A stretch of 55,319 nt of DNA, counting the filler, from Jimgerdemannia flammicorona (taxonomy: Eukaryota): the NCBI GenBank assembly GCA_003990765.1. It is 2 parts of 2 records of this genome, joined end to end, with 100 filler letters (N's around TTAATTAATTAA, not from the genome) between each part and the next. Parts side by side here need not be neighbours in the genome. Positions count along the whole stretch, not along the records: positions 27,729 to 55,319 come from RBNJ01000619.1; 1 more part is not named here. One strand, written 5' to 3'. This document shows positions 19,701 to 53,769 of this stretch, in pieces. Under the pieces are notes generated by a model. That model worked only from the letters and a program-made list of their open reading frames with translations, did not search any database and was not told the DNA's origin. Both the position numbers and the translations under genes were made by a program. Every line of letters starts with the position of its first letter. Positions within the stretch are counted from its first letter, which is position 1.

Positions 19701-20313
19701 GTGGCACTGCTATATAAGAACAAGAGTAGGAGGGAGGACTGGAAGAACTGGAGGCTGATCATGCTATTGGATATAGACAGAAAGTTGATTACTAAGGTGG
19801 TAGTAGTGAGGCTGCAAAAGGTAGCCCAGCAGGTCTTGAGGGTAGAGCAGTGGGGATTTGTCAGAGGCCAACTTATTCAGGATAGCATAGCTTGGATATA
19901 TGGTATTATTAAAGAGACATAGACCTGTAGATTAGATGGGCACCTGGTCTTATTGGATCAGGAGAAGGCATATGACTGTGTTCAGAGGGTCTGGTTGGCT
20001 AAGATACTAGATAGAATTGAAGTCTCTCATTAGTTCTAAGCAGCAATGGTCAGTCTACTAAAAAGGAGCAGGGCTGCACTCATATATACATAATGAGCAT
20101 CAAGAGATAGCTTTCCCTCTGGGTAGGAGTGTTTTCCAGGGGGACCTGCTGTCTCTCATTTTGTATGCACTCTCCTTAGAGCTCTTAATGGATAGAATTT
20201 GGCAGAAGATAGAAGAGCTTTCAGTTTATAGCATTGAGTGGAAAGTTGATACTTTTGCAGATGATATGGTAGTAGGCCTGGGTTTGATTACTGATGTTGA
20301 GGAACTCAAGGAG
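16747..20313 (+). mobile_element. L1/Tx1-type LINE, copy B (5'-truncated inside ORF1, interrupted just after the RT FADD motif)
   Basis: Starts mid-ORF1; APE relic from ~18140; RT motifs LLYKNKSRREDWKNWRLIMLLDIDRKL, EQWGFVRGQLIQD, LDQEKAYD, GVFQGDLLS and DTFADDMVVG. Confidence 0.9.
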
Positions 20314-20325
20314 ACTACCTGTGAG

Positions 20326-23300
20326 CAGACATCTCTCTGTGGTATCTCTCAGGTTATACAACTTTTGGAAAGCAACTACAATATTATTTTTGGAGAAAAG
20401 AGACTAGCAATATAGCATCTGACAGACAATCTGAGGTACGTACTGGGTAGGACAGCCTGAGCATGTTTAACTGGCAGCATATGGAGAGAGGCCCTGGCCT
20501 GAGGGGAGGTATGAGGGGGCTGCTGGCAGGTGGACATGGAAAGGAAGGAGGCAGTAGTAGAGGACAGAGATCTGGGAGAGTGAGCTTTGCTGAGATGGTA
20601 AAGAGGAGAAGGCAGACATCAGAGCTAGAGGGTTGGTTGAGGAAAGGCAAGGAAATAGAGAAGGTGACAGTACAGAGGGGGGTAGCCTCTGGCAGAGGAG
20701 GCAGTGGAGCTGGAGGTGTAGTGGCTGGGAGGAGTGTGATGGCTGATGGAGATGGGACTGCTAATCTGGAAAAAATCCAGATGTGACTGTGGATGATATA
20801 GCTGAGTGACTGAGGCTTGGGAGACAAGGAGATCTGGCAGATAGTGTGACAGGTCTGGCAGTGGCACCATTACTCAAGAAATTGATCTTGGCATTTGCAG
20901 TGACACTGTACTTCTAGGGCCTAGTAGTAATGGTGAAAATGGTACTGGGGCTGATTGCTAAGTAGGTGGCTGGAGCAGTGTCCATAAAGTTTTTGAAGGG
21001 ACTGGAGGGAGTGGAGGTGGGCTTTGAAGAGGCTGAGCCTTTGAAGGAAGCATTGAAGGTTGGATTAATAGTTGGGGAGGTGTGTGTTCCAATGGCATAA
21101 TGCCTGAAATAGAATCCCAGAGTGGTCCAACTGCTGGTAAAAGGAGTGCCTACAGTGATGGCAATGAAGATAAGAAGGAGAGTTGAGAAGGTCATGGCAG
21201 AGTATGGAGAGGTGGTGGATATTGGATTCAGAGTCTGGGAGAGGACCTCACTCAGGACTGAGAATGTGGATGTGAGGATTTGGCTGGCAGAGAAGGAGGC
21301 CACTGGGAAGGCAAGGGACTGGCCTTCTGGTATGGTCTGGGGGGTGATCATGTGTAAGGTAATGAGGGTGAAGGGGAGTGAGGAGGAGGAAGAGGACTTA
21401 TTGGAAGTACTAGAAGAGTTGAGTAGTGCAGTGGAGCAGTGGGCAAAGGCTTGGAGGGCCTTTGAGGAGGCAATGCACTTGGAGGTGGTGGATGGGAAGT
21501 GGATTCAAGTGAGCAAGGAGCAGTGGGAACAAGATCAGAGATAAAAGAGACAGAGGGAACTGCTGGTGAAGATGAAGAGTGGGTCTCAGAAGGATATGAG
21601 CAGGATGGTAGATATAGGGGGGGCCAAAGTGAGTGTCTGGGTAGATAAGGGAAGTGGGAGTGCTGGGAAGGGGACCAGTGAGAACAGGGAGGTGACTGGC
21701 AAGGACTTGTATGCAGATGGTACTCTGGAGATTTGGGATGAGACATGAGAGGACTCCCCTACCCCTACTCCCCTTATCAGGCAGGGCCCAGCTTCCTGAA
21801 GCAGGGTGGTGGAGGATGTGCCAATGCAGGGGGCCCAGTGAGTGTAATTTGGAGTTCTGGAGGTAGCAAAAGAGGGACAAGTAGTGGCAGTCAGGGAGGA
21901 GGAACTGGTAGATGTCCCAGAGAAGTGGAATGAGGCTGTGAGTGCTGGGGCTGATACCATGATGCTGGATGGTGGGAGGCCAGTGACCCCTGGAGGAAAG
22001 GAGATGGGGAATCTACTTTGGATGTGCAGGATGATGAACAACCTAGTGGCTGAGTGAGCTGGGAGAGGTGGATTTGAGGATAATGAGCGATGAGCATTGG
22101 GTGAGGATCCTACAGGGGGAGGGGGTGGTGATGGCATTGAAGGCAGAAATTCTTATAGTGTATCTGGAGGAGGAAGGCTATGAGGTAGATAAGGAGCAGG
22201 AGGCAGAGATGGTGGGAGTCATGGGAGAGAGGGCTGAATACTGCTGGACCAAGTGTCATAGATTGCAGCTCTGGCAGGAAGCCTGTCTGGAGTACTAAGA
22301 GGAATTCGAGGAGAAGGCAGATGGGGAGATGAATGAGCTGTTGGCTAGACTGGAGGCTCAGAGGGTTGAAGAGGAGGTGGTGACCACAGAACATAATCTG
22401 GACTTGGCATAGGAGGAGATGAATATAGAGTAGTAGGGAAAGCTTGATAATATACCATTCTTCACTATGAATAGTATAACTAATATTTTTTCTTTAAACA
22501 TAAATGGGTTATGGGGCACTTATTAATATAAGAACATTTTTACTTAGCTGAAGAATTGGAGGCTGATCTCTTCCTCTTGCAGGATGTCAGATGTGAGGAT
22601 GATTTGGATAGACTGGAATGGACGAAGGAGTGGGGAGGTGAGGTAGTCTGGAAGGGCAAGGTTGGGATTCTGGTGTGGAAAGACAGAGAGGAGATAAGAG
22701 ATATGTGGAGCTGGGGAGATAGATTGGTCTGAAGAGAGTGGATACACACAGGTTGGGAGCCAGTTATGGTGGGCTCCTGTTATTGCCCTACAGTATGGAG
22801 TGAGTATGTGAATTGGATGAAGGGCCTACAGGAGAGTGGAATTCTTGTAGAGGTTGGGGTAGATATGCTAGGTGAGAACTTCAATATGGTCTGAGACATA
22901 TTGAGGGATAGAACTGATAGAGGATGAGAAGCTGAGGGTTGGAGTGGAGGACTGGCAGCATGAGAGGAAGTGAAAAGACTGAGTGCTCTGGTGAATGCAG
23001 ATAGAAAATATTGGGGAGATAGAAGAGTATACACACACTGGGCTGGGGGCCTGGAGACAAGGATTGATTGGATTCTGACAGCCAGCTGCTGGGGCTTGGA
23101 TGTTTGGAAGTTGCTGGAGGTGGAATGGTGTCCTTGGTCAGATTATTGGGGGCTTTTAGGGCAGGGGCATCTTGGGGGGAGTGGGGATGGGCCTGGACAT
23201 TGGTGTCTCAATTCCTCCCTACTAGATGATAAGATCCAGTGGGATGAGTAGGCTGAAGACATTCAACTATGAGTGGAGTGCTGGAGGTAGGAAGGTGCCA

Positions 23301-25238
23301 CAGTTGGTATTTGGTGGATGAGGATGAAGGAGATGGCCAGGACCTTCTGGAGTGAGACTGGGAAGGAGACAGGGAAACAGAGGAGATGGTGGGTGAAGTG
23401 GGCTTCTAGTAGACTGTCTAGACTCTTAGAGGACTGGGCAAGACTGGTGACATTGGAGGGGGAGGAGGACTGGAGATTGATAAGGGTAAGAATGGAGGTG
23501 GTTGAGCTATAACAGGTGCTGCAAAATGAGGAAGAGGCAAGGGTCCAGGGTCTGGCAGTGCAGCTTCATTGACAGGGATTGGAGGAAGGGGAGCAGCCCT
23601 CAAAGTTTCTCACAAGAGTCCTTTAGGTGAGAAGAGTGCAACAAAGATGAGAGGGGGTGCTGAATGCTGATGGTACATTGGTGTATAGTGTGCAAGACAT
23701 TCTTGGATCATTAAAGGAGCATTGGAGTGGATTGTGGAGTGAAGAGGAGAGTGGGGCAGATACTGAGGACATTGACTGAGTATTGGAGGATTGGCACCCT
23801 ACATGAGCAGATGAGCTGAGTAACTTAGTAATACTGGTACAAGAGGAGGAGATCCACCAGATTCTTGCCATAACAACCTTGGGTATAGTACCTAGAGAGG
23901 ATAGTCTGCTCTGGGACTTCTGGAAAATGATGGTGGAAGTTCTAGGAGTACTGGGAGAGATGACAGCACTGTGTGATTGAATTCTACAGACAGGGAGATA
24001 GGTGGGGGAACAGGATCTGGGGCTGGTGATGTTGCTTTATAAGAACAAAGGAAGGTGAGAGAACTGGAAGAACTGGAGACCAATTATGTTACTGGATATG
24101 GACAGAAAGTTGGTTACCAAGGTGGTGGTCACAAGGTTGCAAAAGGTGGCCCAGCAAGTCTTGGGTAATGAGCAGAGGGGCTTTGTGAGAGGCCAGCTCA
24201 TCAGGGATGGCATAGCATGGGTTCATGGAGTTATTGAAGGGGTGCGAGCCAGTGGACTGGATGGGCATCTGGTCTTTCTGGACCAGGAGAAGACTTATGA
24301 CTGAGTGCAACAGGTCTGGCTGGTGAAAGTATTGGATAGAATTGGGGTCCTGCACTAGTTCAGGACAGTCATGGTCAGCCTTCTGGAAGAAAGTAGGACT
24401 GCACTCATATGTAATAGACACAGAGGGGTAGCATTTCCCCTGGGTAGGGGGGTGCTCCAGGGGGACCCACTGTCCCCCATCTTGTATGCTCTTTCTCTGG
24501 AGCCCTTTATGGACAGAATCAGGCAGAAGATAGTGAGGCTCTCTATCTTTGGCATTAGGTGGAAAGTAGGGGCATTTGCAGATGACATGGTGGTCAGCCT
24601 GGGATTAATTGCAGATGTTAGAAAGCTCAAGGAAATAGTGGAGTGGTATGAGATGAACTCTGGGACTAGGCTTAATTGGTATAAGTATAAAACAATGGTG
24701 TTAGACAATAGTCTGGTGAGAGGGGAGATTATTGGTACCATTGTCCCTGCTGGTGAGGCAGTAAGTACTTGGGTATTTATCTGTCAGTATATGGGTCAGT
24801 TCTGTTCAGACTTTAGTGGGAGCAGAGGGTTGGTATCTGAGAGGAGGCCCTGTGGAGTTGGGGGGGCTGCCAATTGTCTCTGGCAGGATGTGTTTTGATT
24901 CTGAACATCTATTGGCTACCAAAGTTATAGTATCTGGCTTATCATCTGGACTTCCTAGCTTGGGTGATGAAGTGATTGATGAAGCTGACCAAGAGATAGA
25001 TCTGGACTGGAAGGAGGAGTCAGATCAGCTGAGAGGTTTTGTCCTTACTGGTGGTGAGTGAGAGACTTGGGCTGGTTGACTTTCCTAAGAGGCTACACTG
25101 CTTAAGAGCATGGTGGCTGAAGAGAGCAGTGGAGTTGAGAGGGGGTGGTTGGGTCCCTCTACTGCAGAAAGTCTGGGAGATGAGATCTTCTCTGAGGGGT
25201 TCAACTGGTGATCTCCTAGCACTTGTTGGCCTTCAGAA
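20326..25238 (+). mobile_element. L1/Tx1-type LINE, copy C (5' end present, interrupted downstream of RT)
   Basis: 5'UTR and ORF1 (RVSFAEMVK); APE motifs (YTHWAGGLETRIDWIL, PWSDY, GPGHWCLNSSLL); RT motifs (FLDQEKTYD, GRGVLQGDPLSPILY, VGAFADDMVV); LGLVDFPKRL. Confidence 0.92.
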
Positions 25239-25251
25239 TACAGAACAATTG

Positions 25252-27628
25252 CAACATCTCTTTCCAGTACCATTCAGGTTATACAACCTTTGGAAGGCAC
25301 TTTTGACATCGTTTTCAGCAAGAAGAGACTAACAACATGACAACCAACAGGCAACCTGAGGTGCATACTGGGCAGGGCAGCCCAAGCACTTTCGACTGGC
25401 AGCAGGTGGGGAGGGGTCCAGGCCTGGGGGGAGGTATGAGGGGCCTGCTGGCAGGTGGACATGGAAGGGGTGGAGGAGGTGGTGGAGGATCAGGATCTGG
25501 GAGGGTAAGCTTTGTGGAGATGGTGAAGGGGAGACAGCAGGCGTCGGGGCTGGAGGGCTGGCTGAGGAAGAGCAAGGAGACTGAGAAGGCACCAGTGCTG
25601 GGGGGGGTGGCCCTTGGAAGGGGGGGTGGTAGAGCTACAGGAGTAGTAGCTGGGGGGGGTGTGACTGCTGATAGTGTTGGGACTGTCGATCTGGAAAAAA
25701 ATCCAGATGTGATGGCTGATGGCGAGGCTGAGTAGCTGAGGCTTAGAAGACAAGGGGACTTGGTGGATGGTGTAATGGGTCTGGCGGTGGCTCCGTTACT
25801 CAAGAAATCGATTTCGGCATTCGTGGTCACACTGTGCTTCCAGGGCCTGGCGGTGACGGCAAAAATGGTGCTGGGGCTCATCACTAAGCAGGTGGCAGGT
25901 GCAGCATCTGTGAAGTTTTTGAAGGGACTAGAAGGGGTGGAGGTGGGTTTTGAGGAGGCGGCACCGCTGGAGGAGGTGCTGAAGGTTGGATTGGTGGTTG
26001 GGGAGGTGTGTGTTCCAATGGCGCAGTGCCTGAAGTGGGACCCCAGGGTGGTCCAACTGCTGGTGAAAGAAGTGCCGATGGTGACAGCGATAGAGACAAG
26101 GAAGAGGGTTGAGGATTTCATGGCAGAATATGGCAAGGTGGTGGATATCAGGTTCAGGGTCTGGGAAGGGACCTCGCTCAGGACTAGTGATATGGATGTG
26201 AGGATTTGGCTGGCTGGGAAAGAAGCCACTGGGAAGGCAAGGGATTGGCCTTTGGTGATGGTCTGGGGAGCAATTCTGTGTAAGGTGACAAGGGTGAAGG
26301 AGAGTGAGGAGGAGGAGGAGGATTTACTGGAAGTACTCGAAGAGCTGGGGGGTACTGTGGAGAGGCGAGCAAAGGCTTGGGAGGCTTTTGAAGAGGCAAC
26401 ATACTTGGAGGTGGTGGATGGAAAGTGGATTCGAGTGACCAAGGAGCAGTGGAAAAGGGCTCAGGGGCATAAGAGGCAGAAGGAGTTGCTGGCCAAGCTG
26501 GATAGCAGACCACTGGGGGAGGTGAGCAAGGTGAAGGACACAGGGGGAGCTGGAGCGAGTGTCTGGGCCGGCGAGGGGGAGGGGAAGGACAAGAAGGAGG
26601 CGGGGGAGGACAAGAAGAAGGCTGGGAAGGACCCGTATGCAGATGGTACACTGGAGGTGTGGGAGGAGGACTGGGTGGGCTCCCCTACCCCTACCCCTCT
26701 CATCAGGCATGGCCCGGCTTCCCGGAATAGGGTGGTGGAAGATGTGTCAATGTGTGGGGCCCAGAGGGTACAATTTGGAGTTCCTGAGGTAGTATATGGG
26801 GGACAGATGGTGGCGGCTGGTGAGGAGGAGCTGGTGGATGTCCCAGAAGTATGGGATGAGTCTGCAAGTGCTGGAGCTGACACCACAATGTTGGATGGAG
26901 GGAGGCCAATGACTCTGGGGGGGAAAGAGGTGGGAAACTTGCTTTGGATGTGCCAGATGATGAATAACCTGGTGGTAGAAGAGTTGGGGGAAGTGGACTT
27001 GCGAGTGATGAGTGATGAGTATTGGGCAGGAATACTGCAGGGGGATGGCGTAATGAAGGCATTGAAGACAGAAATTCTTGCAGTGTACCTGGAGGAAGAA
27101 GGGTATGAGGTGGATAAGGAGAGGGAGGAGGAGATGGCAGTTGTTGCTGGAGAAAGGGCTGAATACTGCTGGAATAAGCAGTATGGACTATAGCTCTGGC
27201 AGGAAGCATATATTGAATACTGAGAGGAGTTTGAGGAGAAGGCCAATGGAGAGATGAATGAGCTTCTGGCTAGATTAGAGGCTCAGAGGGCAGAAGAGGA
27301 GGAGGTGGCTGCGGAACATAATTTGGACAAGGCACAGGAGGAGATGAGCATGGAGCAGTAGAGGCAGACTGATGACATCACATATATCATCAATATGAAC
27401 AGTACAACCAACATTTTCTCTTTGAACATGAATGGGTTACAGGGCACTTCTCAATGTAGGAACATTTTTACTTAGATGAAGGGATTGGAGGCCGATATCT
27501 TCCTCTTGCAGGATGTCCGGTGCAAAGATGACTCTAATAGATTAGAATGGACGAAGGAATGGAGAGGTGCAGTGATTTGGAAGGGCAAGGTTGGGATTTT
27601 GGTTAGGAAAGGCAGAGGGGAGAAAAAA
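25252..27628 (+). mobile_element. L1/Tx1-type LINE, copy D (least decayed; 5'UTR, ORF1 25337-27361, start of ORF2 from 27395; runs into gap)
   Basis: ORF1 stays in one frame for 675 codons with only three internal stops (TAG 25733, TAG 27191, TGA 27221). It retains CpGs. ORF2 begins MNSTTNIFSLNMNGL..EADIFLLQDVRC (APE N-terminus). Confidence 0.92.
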
Positions 27629-30633: not shown

Positions 30634-33600
30634 TTACTCCTCATCTCGTTTCGTGTCATCTACGTTCATCTCATCTTCCCCGGGCACAGCCTTTATCTCA
30701 CCCTCCGTTTCTCCGTCAACGTCCATCTGCGCGGGTCCTATCACCGCCTTTGCCTGCTGCGACTTCACATACTGAAGTTGCTCTTGCATCATCTGGTACG
30801 CGTATGCCCCCATGTGCGCGACGTCGCTGATCTCGAAAGGGTCGCCGTGGTCGTCAGCCTACAGCACGACATGACATGGGTATAGGGAATAAGCAAGTAA
30901 TTTTGATACCAAAGATAGAGCAATTGCGAAGTTCGACTGAACCAAGATACCAACCTCACGTGTTGCAGGCCACATTTCGCCAATCTTGAGCTGCAATTTA
31001 TCCGGCCTTGCTACCAACTTGTTGAACGTCGGCATCAACTCGTAGCAATTCTCGAACAGGGCCCGTCGACAGAAAACGTACAGTCCAAGTCGTGCACGAG
31101 ACATCGCCACAATTAGACGCCGGACATCACGGATGTGGCCGACGGATTTTGTGCGGACAAGAGAGAGAAGTATGTCTGATGATTGCAGACAAAAGAATTG
31201 AAGTTTAGATCGCTATGGTATTTGTGGAGCGGAATGATATATGTATAATTGTACTTACAATCATTCTGTTGACCCTGATACTTGTCGACTGTGGTCACTT
31301 TAGCCGGTCGTCCAAAGAATGGATTCCAAGCACAACGCCGATTCAATACATCCCTTATCAAAGCTTTCTGACCGTTATATGTGGTCAAAATCGTGATCTT
31401 CTCAGCAGGGTACCTTTTGGTACAAATCCCAAAATTAAGTCAGCAATTAATTTTCAGGATGTGAACATAGGTAGTCAACAGGTTACGGGCAAATTTAAAT
31501 GCAACTTACCCGATCAGTCGCATGTATTGATATACCGCAACAATGTATTCCGCCTCACCCAGATTCTGATAGAAATACGGCACGGGCTCGCTTTCCCCAA
31601 CGCCATTATAATCTCCCACATTAACGAGCTGATAATCGTAGATGAACCCTGCGTTCGCCTTTTGATACTCGTCCAATTGTGAGATGATGGCAAGATCGCC
31701 GAGTTTCTTGTACCGCCAAGTGTATAGTTTGGCGATTGATGACCTTGCACGCCCCTACAAGCCACGAAAAATTAATCGTACAATGAATGAACAGCCTATC
31801 GTTTTGGAAAACCTGATAATCTTAAAACATACTTGAGCATCCAAATCCACCGTCGGTACACCCAATCTTACGAATCGTGTGAACAAACTCTGTTCCATGT
31901 TCCCGTATTGTTGGAATGCCATGTTTTTTACGACGGGCGGCAGCTGGTTGTGATCTCCAATCATGATTACTCTCTTTAGTCGACTCCGGCCATCTTCTGT
32001 TTCTTGTAGTAACAGTGGAATAAACGTTTCGACCTCCAATATTTGGGCCGCTTCTTCCATAACAATGTTGTCGTACTTGAAGTTCAGACCAACCAGTTCC
32101 CGCCGCTATGGAGGAGGGGAAGACCAGCGGTGGTAGACGTTTAGAGGAGTTAAGGATATATAAAGGAATTTCTTTCGTAGCAAACACGGCCAAAATATTA
32201 CCTACCTTGAGAGCAGCATGTGTACATGTCATGGCAATAATCTTCGCCTCTTTCGTCAACAGATAATTCGCACGGTCGTAGCCTGTACGCAACAGTTCAA
32301 ATGCTCGTATCTCCTCTAATTCTGTAAATGTCTTCTTTAAATGCCGGAAGCAGCCCTCAACGACGTCCAATGCTTCCTCGAAGGTCATCTCTGGCGTGAA
32401 CAACGGTTGCGGTGCGTTCGAGAAGAATTCGGTAAACGGGAATCCATCTCGAAGTAAATCGACCGATTGTGCTTGTCGGACTTTGTCGATATAAGGTTCC
32501 CACCGCGACAGGACGTGATACAAATAGAAATATCCGGCAGTTTCACATGTGTATCCATGATCCCCTGGGATTTCCAACGATTTACCGAGTCGGCCGACTT
32601 CATCCAAGAGCGCCAGGCGCCTCTCCTAATAAACGATTTTATATGGTATCAGAAAACGCACACCGAAATCCGAGAGCTTGATAAAAAACGGAACGTTATC
32701 GAGGAGAAGAATGCTCACCAGGAAAGAGTTCACACGCCCATACTTGCTGAAACTCATCTCCGTGTTCAGCTCCTCTTCTCCGTGACCAAGACGCAACAAA
32801 TGGCGCTGATCGATATCCAGTGCCATGATTTTTTCAAACAGCTGGTTCAGCGCCTGATTACTATGCGTCACAAGTAAAGTGTGTTGATCCGGAAAGTTAT
32901 GATACAGGTTCGCAATGATTTGCACGGCAACGTCTGTCTTGCCCGTGCCCGGAGGACCTACTACTAGAGTAAGTCCAGGGTTGACACCGGAATGGATGGC
33001 CTCAGCTAATGGATAGAAGCATCGCAGACCGAGGCGTGAGTGTTGGTTGGTATTCAATGAATGAAAGATAGTGAGATATAAATGCCACCAAAGGCATTGA
33101 GAGTTACCTTGAACAGGCGTAAACTTGACCGAATTTTTTCGCGGCACATCCTCTGGATACGGGCCCATATTCGGAACAGTGTACGTCTTGACCACCAGTT
33201 GATCATCATTGTCTTTTTTGGATCCATTTTCAGCCACCTTGCCACCGACTTTTCGTTTCTTTGGCCGTTCCGGTTGCTTTTCGGTGGACGAAGATTCCGG
33301 AAATTCGACCACGTACGGCGGATCTAAGATCTTGTCGGACTTTGCTGTAGGGACAACTTTCTATCTCATACAAGAAGAGATATAATTATCATTAGGGCCA
33401 ACAAGAACAATGTCCTTCGCTCATATGAAGTTTATATAGATACCTTTTCTGGGAAAGATTCTCGCAAATGATCCCAATCCAAAAAAGTGTCTCTGAAATT
33501 GATCTCTTTCACGCGGTTAGAAAGCTTTGAATAATGGGCGCTTCCAGGATCTCCGTAGCCGAGAAACACTTTTTGTAGCCAGTCCGGAACAACGAGGTCG

Positions 33601-36600
33601 CTTTGCATCAAGTCGCGAATGGTCTCGAGAACAGCCTTGAAATTGTTTTCCTATAAAATATCAGATAATATCAAATGTGTGGATGTTAAAACTAAAGTGT
33701 TCGACGGGGATGTAAGAATGCGGATACAGAAAAAGAATACGTGGATAGAGGGCTTACCTTCGGTTTTCTTCGAACAAGGACGTTGAACGTTTCATGTACA
33801 TCCTCTCCCTCCTTGCGGTTATATCGGTCCATGTCCATCTACATGCCGACGGAATACAATATGCGATGAGTGAAGTTAGTTGTTTATTGGAGACCTAAGG
33901 CCGCAATACATAGATTATAACACTGACCTTGTACTGGTTCGGATCCAACCAGACCCTCAACGTTCTATTCGATCCGCCCAATTTGGGATTCTTGTCGTCA
34001 ATCCGGGGTTTCCCGACTTCATCAATCGGCTTACCTAGTTCAAGATGTAAGCGAGCGTATCACATGAGCATATCGCCTTTCATAGCGCGGAGTCATAATG
34101 GAATCAGGAATATCTCTCACCATCCGATCCAATGAGGTCCGCGATCTCGCAACCTCTGACGTATTTCAATCCAAAATGCTGTCGGAACTCAGTGTCATCC
34201 TTGTATCGATCGCCGCTCGCGTCATGCGCTTGGATCGTCAGCAGAAACATAATGTCGTGTTGCCTTAGAGAATCCCATTCACCTTTGATCGAGTCTGTGA
34301 AGCGACCCAAGTTAAATGTGATCTGTGGGTGTGAACAACGGAATGTTAACGGGTCGGACAGTCGGAGAAGGTTGGAATGGAACGACATCATTTCTCAAAC
34401 CCCTGCAGAGCGACTTAACCATAGTAACGGTAAATACAAAAGAATCTTACATCGGCTTTTACATGTGCAGGCTTGTTTTCTCCCAAATTCGGTTTTGCGA
34501 CATCGACGATGCTACATCACCGAGGTATGAAAGGTACTATTAAGACCGCCTGTGATGGATTTCTGTTTCTATCGCATCTCCCCCAAAGGCCCTTACCTAA
34601 AATTTTGGATTGACACCGCCATCCTCGCCCACCCAGAGAACTCGGTCTTACGATCTGGATAGGTTAATCTGGGCGCAAGGCGCTTCACCACATCCTCGAT
34701 GTCCTGTCGGATCTGGTATGTGCTTTCCAATCGAAAAAGATTAAAATTCCGCAGCAGGTAGTCGTGAATGGTTAGGAACTGCAGGTTCAATTTCGGCAGC
34801 GCTAGCGGCGTATCTCCGGAATAGAACTGCGTCTTGACAAGTGTGTCGTTGAAGAGGGTGAACTAAGTCGAATAAGAGAGATCTAGTTAGTAAACAGCGG
34901 CTACGATAAAATGCACAACGGTATTGCAAGCACGAAGCACACCTCGTCGGGATACAGCGGCATTGCGTTGATGGCCTCAATCTGACTGGTCCGTTTCTCA
35001 AACTTCTGCACCAATCCTTCCACCAGCAATTCACGTTTATCGACTCCCTGCACATCAACCAACAAGTCACTGCGTATCCCCAGATGATCGCAAAGTTTTA
35101 CAAGATCACCGTCATCCAATTGCTTGAATTGCTTCAATAATTCCGGGCGACGCTCGATGGAAGCGAGATTCGACAGAGCGATATCCGACAAAGAATTTTT
35201 GAAGTGCTTGAACGCGATGAGCTGTGGAAAGCGATAAGACGTGGTATTGATAAAAGCGCTCAAGATATTTCACAAACGGAAAATGTGCGGCGGTATTTGT
35301 TCGCCTACCTGCAATTCCATCAACCTCCCACAATGCAACTCCGTCATCTGCGAATCCGTCAGGGCCAGTCCAGTATGGTCGTTAATTTCGAATCCAGCGT
35401 AGAACCTCAGAATCTCCAACAACTGATTAAATAGATTGCTGTATAAGCCAAAGAAAAAAGAGCGGTTCAAATATTAAACAAAATGATCGAAATAATACTT
35501 GTCAGGAGGTTTGGGTATCAATGATAAAGTCGTGAAAAACACACCAACCTGCCCTGCTTGCGCTTCACAATTGGCGCCATCTTGCAAAGTATCAACACTT
35601 GATGATCATCTAAAAGCATATTGAAATGTCGCCGTGTCGGCAGCTGTGCCTCTAGGTCGATGAGGAATTCCAGAAAACGTTCGCAGTAACGGATCGAGTC
35701 TGTGGGGGCTGGTCCTGTTGATGACAGCGAGCAGATGCGTGAGAATCCGAATATCTCCTAAAACAACGCTACCAACATAAAAAAAAATTGAATACACTAT
35801 TTACCATCTTCAGATTCAGGGATGGTGTATAGAATTTTGATGAACTCTTTCAACATCACGCTGAGCCACGATCGTTCGAATTCCATTTTCTTTCGCGTAG
35901 CTTGGTCTAGATTTGCGTAGAAGTAAATGCCAGATCATATCGGCCAGGTAGTCATTAAAACATTGACGTACAAAGAGGATAGTTATGGTAGAACACAAAA
36001 TCAGACGTACCACTACCCTCGAATTTCTTTTCTATTGCGTTCCACATCTTCTTCAAAGGTGAGTAGTGTTTAAACTGTTGCTCTCTCCTCGATGGATTTG
36101 CAAGGCAATGCCATATGGAAAGCGATACGAGTCTGTGGGAGTACGGGCAGGATAGATAGTGTCAATGGAGCGCCAGGGATACGGTTACTCAGACGCATGT
36201 ATGTATGTCTACAATGTCTAAAAACCACTTACCTCATGCATTCCGATCGTACGATGGGGTTCTCCAAACTCTGGAACGCATTGATCATAAACACCAACAA
36301 AAATCGGCGTACGTGCAAAGTTAACTCGTCCGAAGTCAGATCGTCCACAAGCGGCGAAACCATAATGTGTAGGACGCGCGTGAAAAACCCATAAAATTTG
36401 GTGGGATTGGACATAAACGCATCTGTTGATGTTAAGAAGTGAAACCGAATTTGTGAGAAACACGAATATGATTGACCGAGTTCTATAACAACGGAGGCAA
36501 ACGACAAATGACATACCCCATGGCGATACTCGCTGTCGAAACTTCTCATTGATCATGAGGACGATGGAAAGCACGTAAACAGAAGAGGCATCCGTCTCAT

Positions 36601-37009
36601 TGAAATTGGGCCATAAGTACTATACGGTAGATTGGCAGGAGGGGTTTATAAGTATTTTCGTCACCTGTTTCGTAATTCGTAATGGTCAAATATAATACTA
36701 AAGTTGGGCCAAACCCTGCGCTACAAGAATAAGTCGTGTACAGAAATGACAGCGTACCTTTTCCAAGTACTGACTAAACTCGAGGAGCATAATCTTCCTA
36801 ATGTTGAAGTTGGTCTTGACCAACTCGTCCCTATAAATGCTCTTCACGATGCCAAAGTCCCAACTGACGTGGCCTTCTTTGTTGGACCATAACTTTTCGG
36901 CCACGATAGAGACAGAATCAGCCTGAATCTCGGCGAGAGTTGGATACTGAACGCCACGGCTGGACTCGGTGGAGTTAGCATGGAGGGGGAGGGTTGATTT
37001 CCTATCCAT
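30634..37009 (-). CDS. AQR: Intron-binding spliceosomal RNA helicase Aquarius (Cwf11/IBP160), many exons
   Basis: [54 protein letters not shown]-loop [89 protein letters not shown]; acidic last exon ending KRDEE* at 30634. Confidence 0.96.
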
Positions 37010-37733: not shown

Positions 37734-39257
37734 AAAAGAAAAAGAAAGGAAAAGAACTGGATGGCCGTTCCCAATCTGCAAGTCATTGTGGTCGATCCAA
37801 CCAGTGGTGTTGACCCAGTAAACGTTACCACGCTTGTAGTAATTGAATTTCTTTGACGTAGATGTGGTTTGGTTGCGTCGTCCTGGTAGAAGCCGTCTGC
37901 AATTATGTGAAGGGAGACGGAAGAATCCATGTTAACATTAAATGGATGAGAATAAGCTGCAAAAATAAAAATAAAAAAAAGTCACCCCAAGGTGTGCATA
38001 GGCTGTGGCTTACAGCTCTTGAAGTTCCAGGGAGCTAAAACTTGTTGACACCAGTTGCCGTTCTCGGTCTGGCGGAAGAGATAGGACAGGGAGGAAGCCT
38101 TCAGTAAGCCGGCATGAATACGCAACGAAATAGGAATGAAATGTATAACGTACCAGTACTGGAATGATTGCCCCCCCCAGCACAATTGATCCGTCTATCG
38201 GAATACAAAAAAGGTAAACTCCATGAGCATCACTTACAACCTTTACAAGCCTCCAAAGGTATATGTGATAATGAAAAAATTTACCAAACAGATTCCTGGG
38301 TACGCGATCTGATTATCTGTATGATTTCGTCAATAGAGAAACTATTAAAAATCAATGCCCATAGTTACAAATACCAAGCGTTGAAAGGTAGGAAAAAAAA
38401 AAAAGAAAAAAAAAAAGAGATCTCACGTTCAACACCGAAGTACTCGCAGGTCAACCAGGCGTAGGAAGAGAGACCTCTTCTGCGGCATATTGACCCTAAG
38501 ATCGGAACAAATAGAATAAGGAGTAGATAAATGAGTATGGTCGACGGGATGGAAATAAAATAAATGGACATTATAAAGAAAGTACGTACAGAGAGAGAGA
38601 GTCGCCGATGATTGGTACTCAGCAAAATAAAATAATGAATAAACGAGTGACGAATATAACAGCCACAATCCCACCCTGGCATTCCAACTGACCACCGAAA
38701 AATTAATATAATGCTTCTTCCCATCCAGACCGCTCGCCAACAACACTTCAGTCCCTGACGTGACATTCAGGTATTGTCAGTTATTCGAATCGATCTTGAA
38801 CCCGACCATAGTGGGGCTAATTGTTTGCGAGCCAAAGGCTAAACCAAACTTTGATAGAAAAAGTAAGCGTTACGATTTGGCAATAGTAAATCGGTTAGGA
38901 AAGAAACGAAGGGTGAGTGCGGAGAATACGTAAGTGATTGGTGGGAAGAAATAATCACCTGGCTACTTTCAAAGTATATACGTCTTGAAGCCGGGAACAG
39001 CTGCAAATGTCAACGAAGAGGACGGTCTCGAACTAAACATTAAACATCCAAACAATAATTAACTGACAAAGAACTCGCTACTCACACCACTATGACGTAT
39101 GATTGCTATCCCGCCGTCCTGTCCAATAAATCTCCTCACTATTCGGCGAGACAGTCTTCTTCGCCAGGAGGGTTGTGATGAGGGTTGAGGTGAGCATTGT
39201 TGGTGTTTGTAGGCTCACCTGACAAAAATGTGAGCTGTGAGGTATGTGAAAGGTGCA

Positions 39258-40856
39258 GATCTCGGAGTATGTCAGAACTATGTGAAGCAATGGGGTGCGA
39301 CTGCGCAATGGAATCAAGCTCACGATGTGTGCGTGTTCGCTGATTCCCCTCCTGTTCATTTCATTTCTCAGGGAATAGCATCGGCGACGAGGGGGCATGC
39401 GCCCTAGCCGAGTGTTTGAAGCAGAACACGGCCTCGACCTCGCTGGATCTCGGAGGTATGTCAAAACAAGCAATGGATTGCAGCTGCGCAATGGAATCAA
39501 GCTCACGATGTGTGCGTGTTCGCTGATTCCCCTCCTGCTCATTTCATTCTCTCAGGGAACAGCATCGGCGACGAGGGGGCACGCGCCCTAGCCGAGGGGT
39601 TGAAGCAGAAAATGACCTTGACCTCGCTGGATCTCGGAGGTATGTCAGAACTGTGTGAAGCAATGGATTGCGGCTGCGCAATGGAATCAAGCTCACGATG
39701 TGTGCGTGTTCGCTGATTCCCCTCCTGTTCATTTCATTTCTCAGGGAACAGCATCGGCCACGGGGGAGCACGCGCCCTAGCCGAGTGTTTGAAGCAGAAC
39801 ACGACCTTGACCTCACTGGATCTCGGAAGTATGTCAGAACTGTGTGAAGCAATGGGGAGCGGCTGTGCAATGGAATCAAGCTCACGATGTGTGCGTGTTC
39901 GCTGATTCCCTTCCTGCTCATTTCATTTTCTCAGGGAACGGCATCGGCCACGAGGGGGCACACGCCCTAGCCGAGTGTTTGAAGCAGAACACGACCTTGA
40001 CCTCGCTGGATCTCCAATGTATGTCAAAACTGTGTGAAGCAAAATGGGGTGCAGCTGCGCAATGGAATCAAGCTCACGATGTATGCGTGTTCGCTGATTC
40101 CCCTCCTGCTCATTTTATTTTCTCAGGTAACAGCATCGGCCACGAGGGGGCACGCGCCCTAGCCGAGTGTTTGAAGCAGAACACGACCTTGACCTCGCTG
40201 GATCTCCAATGTATGTCAGAACTGTGTGAAGCAATGGGATGCGGCTGCGCAATGGAATCAAGCTCACGATGTGTGCGTGTTCGCTGATTCCCCTCCTGCT
40301 CATTTCATTTTCTCAGGGAACAGCATCGGCCACGAGGGGGCACGCGCCCTAGCCGAGTGTTTGAAGCAGAACACGACCTTGACCTCGCTGGATCTCGGAA
40401 GTATGTCAGAACTGTGTGAAGCAATGGGGTGCGGCTGCGCAATGGAATCAAGCTCACGATGTGTGCGTGTTCGCTGATTCCCTTGCTGCTCATTTCATTT
40501 CTTAGACAACAGCATCGGCGACGAGGGGGCATGCGCCCTAGCCGAGGGTTTGAAGCAGAACATGACCTTGACCTCGCTGGATCTCGGAAGTATGTCAGAA
40601 CTATGTGAAGCAATGGGGTGCGGCTGCGCAATGGAATCAAGCTCACGATGTGTGCGTGTTCGCTGATTCCACTCCTGCTCATTTCGTTTCTCAGACAACA
40701 GCATCGGCGGCGAGGGGGCACGCGCCCTAGCCGAGTGTTTGAAGCAGAACACGACCTTGACCTCGCTGGATCTCGGAAGTATGTATGTCAGAACTATGTG
40801 AAGCAATGGGGTGCGGCTGCGCAATGGAATCAAGCTCACGATGTGTGCGTGATCGC
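39258..40856 (+). repeat. Tandem array of ~190-bp exon+intron units (8 complete exons; 8 complete introns plus a truncated ninth)
   Basis: Near-identical introns of 100-108 nt (GTATGT...GCTGAT...YAG) alternate with 84-nt exons. Confidence 0.97.
39372..40778 (+). pseudogene. RI-like (NLRC3-type) leucine-rich-repeat gene fragment: eight 84-nt exons, no visible 5' end
   Basis: Exons 39372-39455, 39556-39639, 39745-39828, 39935-40018, 40127-40210, 40317-40400, 40506-40589 and 40695-40778 are each open. They encode xNSIG[D/H/G]EGA[R/C/H]ALAE[C/G]LKQNTTLTSLDL[G/Q], and all introns are phase 1. Functional status is uncertain. Confidence 0.85.
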
Positions 40857-41130
40857 AAGCAGGTGCATAGATTTGTACATTAAGGGTTTTGTGAGAAAAG
40901 CGACGCCCAGATATAGGCGAGCAAAGGCACTAATCATCTCCATTGAAGCTTTAAGATCACTTAATTACATAAATAGAAACAGTCAGGACGAAAACGGTTA
41001 CAACATCTGATAGAATTCCAGAACTTTCATTGCACATTTTTAATATAATGCCCTCTAAAGTATATACACCGCAAGTTTGCAAACATGGATGAAAAATCCG
41101 AATAAATGGATATGTATACAATTGATTGAG

Positions 41131-41398
41131 TTATATCCCGACAACCACATTCTTTAACTCGGCTAGGGCGTGTGCCCCCTCGTGGCCGATGCTGTTGTCT
41201 GAGAAATGAAATGAGCAGGAGGGATCGTGAGCTCGATTCCATTGCGCAGCCGCACCCCATTGCTCCACACAATTCTGACATACCTCGGAGATCCAGCGAG
41301 GTCAAGGTCGTGTTCTGCTTCAAACACTCGGCTGGGGCGCGTGCCCCCTCGTGGCCGATGCTGTTGTCTGAAAAATGAAATGAGCAGGAGGGGAATCA
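41131..41398 (-). pseudogene. Inverted 3' end of the LRR gene: exon 9 (41367-41284, 84 nt) and terminal exon (41198-41131, ends TAA)
   Basis: The minus strand reads NSIGHEGARAPAECLKQNTTLTSLDLR, then NSIGHEGAHALAELKNVVVGI*. The intervening intron lacks ~20 nt, including the GCTGAT branch motif. Confidence 0.82.
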
Positions 41399-42485
41399 GC
41401 TTGGTAGTCATTGTTCTACTCCAAGTACCCTCCCAATACAATCTTGTGCACGTTTCGCTCCCGCAACCGAGTAAGCTCCCAAGATTCTGTGCATTGTGCT
41501 GTGTGGTGTTTGAATTATCCAACAAAATACCCGTGGGATTGTCACGTTATCACGATGACGAAGTAACCCGATATTATTTCTTTGAGGTTATGAAGTTTAG
41601 TGCTCAAACGGAGTAAAAAACTATAATTCGATTTATCTGAATCAAGAGCTTAATCCTCAAAATCGGATCCAATCGAACCGAATCACGCCGCAACACCCAC
41701 GCAAACTCCGCTGGACGACTTTTTCTCGCAGCGATATTAGCACAAGGAGACATCGTAAAGGTGCGGGCCGAATGCGAGCAGCCGTTGACGCAGTACGAAC
41801 TTCTGACCTATGGTGTTCTGTTTCCCCTAATGCAGGTCATATGCTTTCCCTGGAAATGTAATCACTAATTAAAGCAAGCATGAACGAAGAGTTTTCTGAG
41901 AATTTTTGATACGATACAAATCGTTCTCATCCTATCGGCATGAAATGACTTTGTCTAAACTCCGCATCAGTTTGCCCGATATTCTTATGGTTACCTCTGA
42001 CTTCGTCGATAACGGCGGGATTCCAAAACTCGGACATCGGGCATACGCAAATTCGTTTGGAAAGATTTTCTCAGTGACCGAAACTAATCTATATTAAAGC
42101 GAGCGATATTTAACCTGCCAATCGACTGATTTCCGCAGCAAATTATGTCGGCATGACAGTTTGTAGTGTATAAACTCGTGGAGTGTTTTCCAGCAGGTTA
42201 GATCGTTTGGCAATCAATGACACCAAAGTCGATTCACCGGATGATGAAACCTTCGACACGCACCAACAAACGCATTTGATGATACCACCGCCATATGCCT
42301 TATTACACCGACAAAAATAAATAAAACGGAATACTTTGTTACGCTATAAAGCTAAAGACCGGGATTTAAAATATCTTAATATTATTTTCCGCCTTGGCCA
42401 ACGGTCGATGGTATTATTCTAGATTCATGGAAATCTTACAATATGGCGAAGTACAGAATTCAAATTCCGTAGGACCAGGGCCAGC

Positions 42486-45400
42486 TTAGACACGACGGAC
42501 AGCCTTGTTGTAATTAGGACTCTCTACATCATTCACTTTAATACCGCCACAGTAGGCACCCAAAATCTCGATGTTGAAGTTTGCTAACTCACTGCTATTG
42601 GCGTTGAAAGAAATTACGCCAATGGCCACGGTGTTTTGCCCGTTGTGCTTAATAATGCCTTCAGGGACAGGGAAGACGGTCTGAGGGCCGAGCGCATTAG
42701 CTGTGAGACAGGAAAATGATGAGTCAGTTTTTTTTTCTTTCGGGACAACTCGTATATATATATATCAATATATTATTAGAGAATAACTTACCGTATTTGC
42801 CAAATTGCCATCCGTTAACATAAAAGATAGCGCGATATTCCTTTGACTTGTCGTCGGTGAAGCGGAAAGCAAGTGGGACGTCGTGACCCGAGGGAATGTT
42901 GAGGTTGAATGTGGTACGGAACCAAGCGACACCAGGTTGCTTGAAGTTGTACGGCAAAGAGACTGATTGCCATTTGGAGTCGCTGAATCCAGGAAGATGC
43001 CATCCAGCACGTTCGCCGTAAAGGCCACCCTCGTTATACGGGCCTCTCACTTTATCGACGATATCTTCGCCACCGAGGTTGCCCTGAACCTTCCATTTAA
43101 TAGCTGTATTGTTACCGCCAACCAAGAGAGCCTTGCCAAATCCACGAGCGGACTTGAATTGATCATCCACGTTCCAGTCTTCATCGTGGCCTGAGGTGAG
43201 CAACAAGAGGGAAATCGAGTTTTCTCCCGATTTAACTTGGCCCTTGGAGAAAGTATACGTGGCATTCGCAGAAGAGGAGGTTGCCGGGATTGGAGTGCCA
43301 CCAAGGTATTCTCCGTTCAACCAAGCAAGGTACCCAGATCCATTACCACCTTGACCTAGCAATTCGAGACCGGTGATTGCGGAAGGCCCGTTGAATTTTC
43401 CGCGGAACCAGATACTTCCGGTATGGTAGCCATAATCATCAGCGTAGAGAACAGGCAAAGTTTCGGGTTGCGTGATGCTGTTTGTAGTCGAATGGTTGGC
43501 AACGATCCAATTACTGTCGTCAAAATTGGGGTCGGTTTCAGGGGAGGCCCAGTTGAACTTCCACTTCGCCTTCAACAAATTCGGCACAGTAATCTTGGCA
43601 GGGCCAGCGAGTTTTCCGACCAGTGTACCGTACAGAGTCGTTTGAACGGAGATCTTTTCGCCATTCCATGTAACGGTTTTCACAGTCTCAGGTGCCACAA
43701 TCTCGATAGTCGTAGTAGCATTGGTGTCACCACGCAAAGCCAAAGTAGTTCCCTTCAATGAGGCACCACGCACCAGATAAGGACCATAAACGAGCACGGT
43801 CTGCTTGTCGTCCACCTTGGGCGCCCAGAACTTGATGGCGTCATCATACCCAGTAAGGTAGAGCAAAAGATCAGGTTCCGCAGCACCGGTGATAACCACT
43901 GGCGTGATGCCCTGATGTTTATAGTTGAGTCTCAAGGTTGTGCCATTGACGCATGTAGTCACGGGGTTGTTGCCAAAGGATTTGACGGCGGGTTTGGCGC
44001 TCCTATTGACTTTGAGCGCGGTCTCGCCATCTTCGCCTTCAAAAGCGTAGAGCAAAGCGACATTGCGTTTACCGATTTGGGCGTGGGTGAAAATTTCGTT
44101 GGTAGAGTACACCAAGTGGTGGGAACCGAAATCGTAACCAGTAACAATAATCTTTGAGTCGCGTCCATCCAAAGTAATAGCTGTGCTAGCTTGTTGAGGA
44201 ATGGTGAAGGTGCCATCGGTGCTGTTGACGTTGAGGTGGAAGGTATCATGCACCAACGATGAGCTGTTTTGGTGACGGACAATGTAGAACTGTGTTCCAG
44301 TGTAGACGTCTTGCAGGGTGTCAACACGGATGTCGCTATTGTCAGCCGTTGAGCCGTTAAACCAAAAGGTGGTAGAAAACGGTTTGACAGTTTGAGTAAA
44401 GTGTCCTTGAAGCTTGAGCTCGCCGTACTTGTACGGCAATTGACGTGACTCGGAAATACCGCCAGCGTAATCGTAGGAAGTGTAGACACCAGGGTAACCG
44501 ATGTTACCCCAGTTCGTACCGCCATAAGTCATGTAAAGATTCAGCATGGTCACCCCTTGGGCGTAGTTGTTCTTATAGAAGACTCTTTCAAATTGATAAT
44601 TGATCAAAGTTGCGCATTTTTCATAGCCTACGCCACCCCAGGGATCGAAGGCACCGCCTTGGAATTCGGGAATGTAAAGGGGCTCGGTAGGATTGAAGGA
44701 TTCGTGGTATCCTCTCCAATAGGTTTGAGCTGAGCCCGGCCAGATGTTGGGGTTCGTGCAGTCGAAGCCTTGAGGGTATGAGTCGAATCTGCAAGACAAA
44801 TATGAAAATATAATGAATAACAAGGGAATAGTATTATAATTGAACCCTGTAGGTTGGTAATGTTGGCCTACCCATAAATATCGACAGCACCTACACCGTG
44901 TCCAAAAGAGCTGTTAGTCCAAGCATCGTTGAAAGTAAGGGGGCTGGTATTAAAAAAATAAAACAAAAAACAAAAAAATAAAAATCAATATTGATCACAT
45001 CGATTCAGCTATTGCAGTCCTTGTAATGAACTTGAAATACATACACGATCACCCCATCTGCGCGGAACTTGTCTTCTAGGGCTTGCATATAACTTGGCTA
45101 CGAGAAACAAACCCAATACGTATAAGGAACCGAAACAACATTACATCGGAATTTTCAATTTGCTCATTGGCCGCTACTGACATCTTGATGGAGGTCGTAT
45201 TCGTTTTCTGTGAAGTAATCATCCATTAGACTCGTGAACACAATGCCCCCGTGGGGACGCACATATACACACCCACACATACACACATATTGAAGATAAA
45301 CTTACCGACTTGATTCAAAATGACTGGCCCTTTATTGGTGATCTGGTTCTTGGCGATGTAAGGGTCGATGGCGGACAGCCATTCAGTCCAAGCAGCAGTA

Positions 45401-52380: not shown

Positions 52381-53769
<1,389 letters not shown>

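Follow-up and report, generated by a model that had tools for sequence, protein, structure and literature searches.

A tandem array of LRR exons with a hypervariable, intron-split codon and the fungal gene family to which it belongs

Organization of the LRR exon array

The window (the whole stretch of DNA analysed, 55,319 nucleotides of the Jimgerdemannia flammicorona assembly) consists of two N-joined contigs, the second of which carries a tandem array with a period of ~189 bases at positions 39258–40856. Positions 39372–40778 parse into eight exons of exactly 84 nt each, all bounded by AG and GT, with introns of 100–108 nt between them. The encoded repeat matches Pfam LRR_6 (PF13516, E 3e-8), and is RI-like in its length of 28–29 residues, its LxxLxLxxN motif and its helix. 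The array is made up as follows:

39258–39266, plus strand: tail left over from a truncated LRR exon, which stops one base earlier than normal; upstream limit of the similarity to the family
39267–39371, plus strand: first intron of the array, 105 nt
39372–39455, plus strand: LRR exon 1, 84 nt, GG...G
39556–39639, plus strand: LRR exon 2, GG...G; junction 1-2 encodes G
39745–39828, plus strand: LRR exon 3, GG...A; junction 2-3 encodes G
39935–40018, plus strand: LRR exon 4, GG...T; junction 3-4 encodes R
40127–40210, plus strand: LRR exon 5, GT...T; junction 4-5 encodes C
40317–40400, plus strand: LRR exon 6, GG...A; junction 5-6 encodes W
40506–40589, plus strand: LRR exon 7, AC...A; junction 6-7 encodes N
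40695–40778, plus strand: LRR exon 8, AC...A; junction 7-8 encodes N
39456–40694, plus strand: seven internal phase-1 GT-AG introns (100, 105, 106, 108, 106, 105 and 105 nt), splitting the x5 codon
40779–40856, plus strand: last intron, cut before the normal acceptor

All eight exons are symmetric and hold one repeat each, with a single intron phase and a fixed border, and the same exon-modular layout is seen in paralogs (203 and 500 exons in the two sets described below). Each intron is in phase 1 and separates base 1 from bases 2 and 3 of the codon that encodes the second x in LxLxxN. This residue is named x5 here, following Lx1x2Lx3Lx4x5N, with x5 at codon 28 and its unsplit neighbor x4 at codon 27. 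From exon 1 to exon 8 the exons end in G, G, A, T, T, A, A and A, and start with GG, GG, GG, GG, GT, GG, AC and AC. Sequential splicing would therefore give GGG, GGG, AGG, TGT, TGG, AAC and AAC (G, G, R, C, W, N and N), forward skips would yield GAC (D), AGT (S) and TAC (Y), and none of the nine combinations of end and start is a stop codon.

The exon parse thus bears out the initial annotation as to the split codon, the junction residues and the products of skipping. Its description of the introns as identical did not hold, as they share 87–96% identity and not one of the 21 pairs is identical. That the adjacent residue varies between G, Q and R is true in part: the forward exons all encode G or Q there, and R is confined to an inverted copy at 41284–41367. 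A third variable site, H/D, lies at repeat position 5 (window position 39386, equivalent to exon base 15), and an N/D site in the strand (repeat position 25, exon base 75) differs between units away from the junction.

A probably truncated and rearranged copy

Downstream of the array lies an inverted 3′ piece of the family, at about 40963–41400 overall, and a short direct repeat is present at either side of the array:

39251–39257, plus strand: first copy of a 7-bp direct repeat, immediately ahead of the array; the other copy occupies 40861–40867
40963–41130, minus strand: family-type 3′ flank or UTR, inverted, limits approximate; 39 other genomic matches among the 40 candidates scored
41131–41198, minus strand: terminal exon of the family's type, carrying the stop codon and running opposite to the array; similar exons in paralogs C1104 and C5542
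41199–41283, minus strand: inverted intron shortened to 85 nt; read on the reverse strand, its junction is G|AC, encoding D
41284–41367, minus strand: inverted LRR exon, 84 nt, AC...G

Single-copy sequence of the genome flanks the locus, for 358 bases on its upstream side and 360 bases on its downstream side. Searching the window by tblastn gave no match to a kinase or NB-ARC domain at E 1. The locus therefore lacks the joined kinase exons of an intact kinase-LRR gene, its terminal exon does not share the orientation of the array, and neither NB-ARC nor NACHT precedes the repeats as it would in an NLR. The possibility that this copy has a start or kinase of its own further upstream was also considered and rejected, since all three frames before the first donor are closed within ~30 codons and there is no kinase match. 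Because there is no upstream kinase or NB-ARC exon and the 3′ end is inverted, this copy is probably a pseudogene fragment; as it looks non-functional, any mechanism would apply to the intact paralogs. The exons differ from those of the nearest sampled paralogs at only 1–5 of 84 bases, and we read the array as a recent, rearranged and orphaned fragment, with an assembly error as a possible alternative.

The 7-bp direct repeat is possibly a target-site duplication resulting from capture of the array piece; with both outer flanks single-copy, no empty site can be found for it. GATC occurs at the breakpoints, but two of those sites derive from family sequence, and a library artefact is for this reason not favored.

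The gene family and its partner domains

An exact exon-end motif with the four junction bases left free identified at least 1,566 family exon ends in the genome, and one in the control. In several paralogs (for example C3091, C10945, C1104, C5542 and C8957) the array follows a protein kinase, in L066, L067 and L104 a more distant kinase lies downstream of the array and not upstream, and in L049, L068, L071 and L080 an NB-ARC–Sel1–ankyrin module precedes the array. Judged from their predicted domains, the NB-ARC–ankyrin–LRR paralogs would represent an NBS-LRR-like build, which reviews say fungi lack. The best named match to the kinase ORF of C3091 is hypothetical protein P0065 of Endogone sp. 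FLAS-F59071 (769 aa, kinase plus LRR_6), which is 51% identical over 95% of that ORF, and this places the family in Endogonales-like fungi.

At L049 (4371–6581, minus strand), NB-ARC (E 1e-10), Sel1 and ankyrin are joined directly to an LRR exon array. C1104 and C17466 carry near-identical arrays with the same unit order and few base differences, one of them a junction base, and are probably alleles or a recent duplicate.

Hypervariability at the split codon

Two sets of paralogs were compared. Set 1 comprised the 36 loci most similar to the unit, together with the contig of the window, giving 254 exon-like matches of which 203 exons and 161 junctions were kept and 51 exons dropped when canonical AG/GT borders and ≥85% core identity were required. 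Set 2 comprised 40 further loci from motif lists, 32 of which contained exons (500 exons, 425 junctions).

Between the exons of the window, the three bases of the split codon differ in 0.71/0.43/0.61 of pairs, against 0.059 for exon bases 3–80. Within the arrays of set 1 (961 pairs, which are non-independent, some contigs such as C1104 and C17466 being possibly allelic), the corresponding values are 0.62/0.58/0.36 for the split codon and 0.59/0.49/0.46 for codon 27. The baselines are 0.097 for other exon sites, 0.10 for four-fold sites and 0.099 for introns, the last being the fair comparison, as both sets were filtered on exon-core similarity, which lowers core diversity and leaves introns unaffected. 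In set 2 the junction reaches 0.64/0.56/0.57, against 0.218 for the equally filtered exon core and 0.205 for introns, and repeat positions 2 and 5 are nearly as variable as the junction (0.77 and 0.72 against 0.80 and 0.86). The variation is sharply confined to exon bases 81–84 and 1–2. By uncorrected simple counts, pN is 0.55 at codon 27 and 0.60 at codon 28, against a pS of 0.135 at codons 1–26, and together with the intron baseline these counts indicate diversifying selection on concave-face residues.

The excess of junction variability over chance is real: the units are homogenised in their introns and scaffold codons, whilst x4 and x5 are near saturation. Tabulating the junction codons across paralogs was one of the checks proposed in the initial annotation, and one half of its refuting condition was that the junction bases would vary no more than other exon positions. 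That half fails, since variation at the junction far exceeds that of the remaining exon bases and of introns in both sets (in set 1, 0.36–0.62 against ~0.10).

The same annotation placed the split residue at the edge of the concave face, and a single-sequence model of the Endogone homolog P0065 agrees (mean pLDDT 45.9, with a usable LRR part in which 10-residue blocks score 53–77). The modeled repeats alternate strand and helix, x5 lies inside the strand in two of eight repeats and just past its C-terminal end in the other six, at the C-terminal edge of the concave strand, and the fold matches NOD2, NLRP3 and ribonuclease inhibitor. In ribonuclease inhibitor, Tyr434 and Asp435 are described as hot spots (PMC9939524). 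For NOD1 and NOD2, the residues implicated in ligand recognition, among them W907 and G908, are reported to be clustered along the concave-face edges, chiefly at x2, x3 and x4 and less so at x5 (PMC3791470). From an alignment with rabbit NOD2, we infer that W907 and G908 correspond to x4 and x5. One chain of NOD2, a 'SER mutant' (SER presumably meaning surface-entropy reduction), differs from the other chain at x4–x5 of one repeat. The two ribonuclease inhibitor residues we take to be x4–x5. The x4/x5 edge of the fungal LRR is a putative ligand-contact edge.

Stop codons, exon skipping and splicing

Adjacent exons never join to form a stop codon, either in set 1 (0 of 161 joins, 2.4 expected, P 0.04) or in set 2 (0 of 425, 11.7 expected, with none of 5000 shuffles as low). 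Skips, on the other hand, produce 20 stops in 793 non-adjacent joins of set 1, in 4 of 23 arrays, and 133 in 4699 (2.8%) in set 2, which is the random rate and affects 17 of 30 arrays. As for the lack of stops among the nine combinations in the window, an array of eight ends and eight starts drawn from the paralogs is stop-free by chance 64% of the time, and three random dinucleotides are stop-free 51% of the time. The stop-prone start GA is no rarer than GC or GT (27, 26 and 22). Arrays rich in T ends do have fewer stop-prone starts (rho −0.55, P 0.01, 21 arrays), but once the adjacent joins that follow T are taken out, the correlation falls to rho −0.26 (P 0.26). On these grounds we reject the idea that freedom from stops is a design, and the non-adjacent joins show no significant avoidance of stops of the kind that selection for keeping them open would give. 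The random rate of stops argues against selection for skipping; as a loss of ~3% per skip is small, it is compatible with some skipping taking place.

The residues that skipping was supposed to create anew are, for the most part, already present. GAC (D) is found at 15/154 junctions in set 1 and 17/425 in set 2 (32/579 in total) and TAC (Y) at 13/154 and 15/425 (28/579), all of them sequential, and the inverted piece in the window itself carries G|AC. AGT (S) was seen at 0/154 and 4/425 junctions.

In contigs from two presumed-RNA runs, the tail of one exon runs straight into the head of another at the sites predicted for splicing, and in spliced contig ends from relatives, tails lie directly before 40317/40318 and a head directly after 40399. 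These runs hold only 12–14% of the words of the stretch, pointing to a relative or to paralogs as their source, and they support the splice sites for the family rather than expression of the window locus. Short paralog contigs in the two runs each fit several exons, leaving their joints ambiguous as to skipping, and the unique flanks of the array had no cover in either run, which is uninformative on expression.

It is conceivable that the diversity arises in RNA, with intact arrays being alternatively spliced; routine skipping would then produce novel x5 residues and solenoids with fewer repeats, and many receptors from one gene. The exons are symmetric and preserve the frame, 97% of skips stay open, and for 103 of the 793 skips of set 1 the resulting residue would be one that no sequential join of that array encodes; LRR exon skipping has, moreover, been reported for NLRP3 (PMC6642158) and for brown-algal ROCO genes (PMC11378527). 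Set against this are the random rate of stops at non-adjacent joins, the commonness of GA, the loss of the T-end correlation and the missing 5′ part of the window locus, and we consider routine skipping unlikely. Splice-made diversity, if true, would matter much more, and splicing inside the strand has reportedly been proposed, in reviews of NLRPs, to create new binding strands. A wider version, in which the fungus builds a receptor repertoire within its lifetime, through skipping or mitotic conversion among nuclei, from >1,500 LRR units, with the intron in a ligand-contact codon serving as a combinatorial joint for residues that are encoded by none of the units alone, seems improbable to a similar degree. 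Most likely, transcripts are spliced mainly in order and selection acts on the adjacent joins.

Probable re-pairing of codon halves

Evidence for exchange at the DNA level comes from 32 junctions, spread over 12 contigs, of a young subfamily whose introns measure 103 nt; here intron diversity is 0.014 (98.6% alike) and junction diversity is 0.51–0.72. Eleven of the 12 combinations of three ends with four common starts are present, and 13 residues in all, though these units lie mostly on 1–4 kb repeat-filled contigs where mis-assembly could mimic re-pairing. Among sixteen units whose intron is the same to the base, 14 junction hexamers are present, with one tail allele found next to four heads and another tail allele also next to four. 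Sharing of a tail and the next head across the intron shows no linkage (11 of 55 pairs, 12.6 expected), whilst adjacent bases are strongly linked (55 of 70 pairs, 24.3 expected). These 11 combinations across near-identical introns make it likely that codon halves have been remixed at the DNA level, as judged from the assembled sequence, without a preference for the intron.

In set 1 a pair-sharing test detects weak linkage, in 44 of 89 pairs across the intron against an expectation of 33.2 (P 0.015), and in 47 of 89 across the exon against one of 36.5 (P 0.017). A mutual-information test, the less sensitive of the two, did not detect linkage across the intron (P 0.29). In set 2 the pair-sharing test finds neither linkage significant (P 0.07 and 0.13). 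The residual linkage in set 1 means that re-pairing is only partial. The suggestion that recombination within the introns could generate residues not encoded by any single unit is therefore upheld insofar as the halves are largely uncoupled in the genome; exchange specific to the intron was rejected, as linkage across exon and intron is equal.

Taken together, these observations are probably best explained by a large family of fungal (Endogonales-like) intracellular receptor-like genes with an RI-type LRR sensor built of tandem 84-nt exons and introns. Diversifying selection on the ligand-contact edge would maintain several long-standing variants of the 4-nt exon tail and of the 2-nt exon head, and unequal crossing-over and gene conversion among units would re-pair tails with heads, anywhere in the unit, over evolutionary time. 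With an intron of ~100 nt inside the x5 codon, re-pairing alone could alter x5 without point mutation.

That the split by itself makes the site diverse, as the initial annotation implied it might, is not supported. The unsplit codon 27 encodes 16 residues against 17 for the split codon in set 1 and 19 against 19 in set 2, with entropies of 3.43 against 3.56 bits and 3.30 against 3.69 bits. The same two positions are also foremost in other organisms: x4 and x5 are the most variable positions in Mortierellaceae proteins (50 repeats; 0.93 and 0.84), rank with the most variable ones in NLRC3-like proteins of animals (26 repeats; 0.65 and 0.93), and reach 0.79 and 0.86 in eight unnamed metagenome NACHT-LRR proteins (74 repeats), which are assumed to be contiguous ORFs and thus free of introns; LRR proteins labeled as Bacteria yielded only 7 repeats, too few for comparison. 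All this would be expected if the split were incidental, with point mutation under diversifying selection acting alone and the apparent re-pairing due to recurrent mutation or mis-assembly. Multi-base tail alleles, however, recur unchanged with several heads across one identical intron, the introns of the re-paired subfamily differ by only 1.4%, and mis-pairing by the assembler should leave some stops where there are none in 586 joins (a comparison with little power for the young subfamily alone), so that an incidental split appears quite unlikely. Under the preferred reading of re-paired alleles, the contribution of the split to x5 diversity is real but modest, given that the unsplit x4 codon reaches the same diversity.

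A mutator or repair process targeted to exon ends could, independently of selection on the protein, also make the six junction bases hypervariable. It would account for the tight limits of the variable zone, and synonymous variants are modestly raised, ~2.5-fold over background, at codons 27 and 28 (14/170 against 59/1826, P 0.004), an excess that leaves room for local hypermutation and that old alleles would also give. The four-fold site at base 80, next to the variable zone, is not raised in set 1 (0.046), nor are the donor bases on its other side, which argues against a local mutator, and a mutator fits poorly with the codon usage at codon 27 (GAA 42 and GAG 3; CAA 34 and CAG 0), the near absence of stops at junctions, and the variability of the same protein positions in other organisms. 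Such a process is therefore highly improbable. Equally remote is a role for the orphan array as a maintained donor cassette, from which gene conversion would supply expressed paralogs with alleles of exon tails and heads: its eight exons are all open with intact splice sites despite the lack of a 5′ part, and scattered or intronic LRRs have been proposed as donors in Ectocarpus (PMC3341825), but its recent origin explains this intactness and its cut ends and inverted 3′ piece fit an ordinary rearrangement relic.

Comparison with known systems

In NOD/NLRC genes each exon encodes one 28-aa LRR, with the border fixed within the beta-sheet (Hoss et al., 2019, PMC6642158; restated in PMC11352923). 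The fungal family resembles the human genes in having a frame-preserving, 28-aa RI-type LRR per exon with a fixed border position. It differs in its linkage to kinase or NB-ARC domains, in introns that are homologous copies, in arrays of up to ~30 units, and in border residues that are hypervariable between units, the borders being compared here by description.

Brown-algal LRR-ROCO and LRR-kinase genes, which are proposed immune receptors (Zambounis et al., 2012, PMC3341825; Teng et al., 2024, PMC11378527), are similar in having one LRR per exon, exon shuffling and positive selection on the concave face. They differ in their 72-bp phase-2 exons, ROC-COR partner and reported alternative splicing, and their selected sites lie inside the exon (14, 16, 18 and 19 of 23); the word 'junction' is absent from the main texts of these two papers (PMC3341825, PMC11378527). 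In Tetrahymena, tandem exon-intron units of clonal origin share one intron phase, a named 'junction' amino acid is encoded by two exons, and unequal crossing-over and some kinase fusions are described, all of which is akin to the fungal family (Xiong et al., 2019, PMC6564038). The Tetrahymena exons, in contrast, are of 90 bp and phase 2 and under mostly purifying selection, and in the passages of that paper concerned with it the junction residue is not described as hypervariable (PMC6564038).

Endogone P0065 has the same order of kinase then LRR and the same 28-aa repeats, yet, compared as protein, these have drifted apart much further from one another than those of the present family. Fungal NLRs with WD, ANK or TPR repeats resemble the family in that highly similar repeats are remixed by recombination, diversifying the sensor (PMC10197012, PMC5658179), whereas the repeats here are LRRs on separate exons, and fungal NLRs are said in these reviews to be without LRRs (PMC10197012, PMC5658179). 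An exon-per-LRR design is thus already known from NOD/NLRC genes, brown algae and Tetrahymena. No published account of the fungal family, or of a hypervariable split LRR codon, was found in the main texts of the open-access literature.

This genome holds a very large, fast-diversifying family of LRRs on kinases or NB-ARC proteins, though the sections of one review on fungal NLRs call LRRs missing (PMC5658179). Its junctions let one measure how an intron raises recombination within one codon under selection, the re-pairing of a few tail and head alleles covering 13 residues in the subfamily with introns 98.6% alike. The family would also make the evolution of receptors at the level of their repeats testable in an early-diverging, plant-associated fungal lineage.

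Other features of the window

Four tandem, strongly G-skewed copies of a 4.3–4.9 kb element, 60–78% alike, occupy positions 11700–27600 and contain reverse-transcriptase-like fragments (ORF 24359–24898); we take them to be decayed non-LTR retrotransposons. On the minus strand, positions 42724–44913 hold a 729-aa ORF for a beta-galactosidase of glycosyl hydrolase family 35. Three ordinary intron-containing genes are also present on the minus strand, at 31822–36619, 52381–53769 and 94–1885, and from their translations these presumably encode an Aquarius-type splicing helicase, a GAPDH and a leucyl aminopeptidase, respectively.
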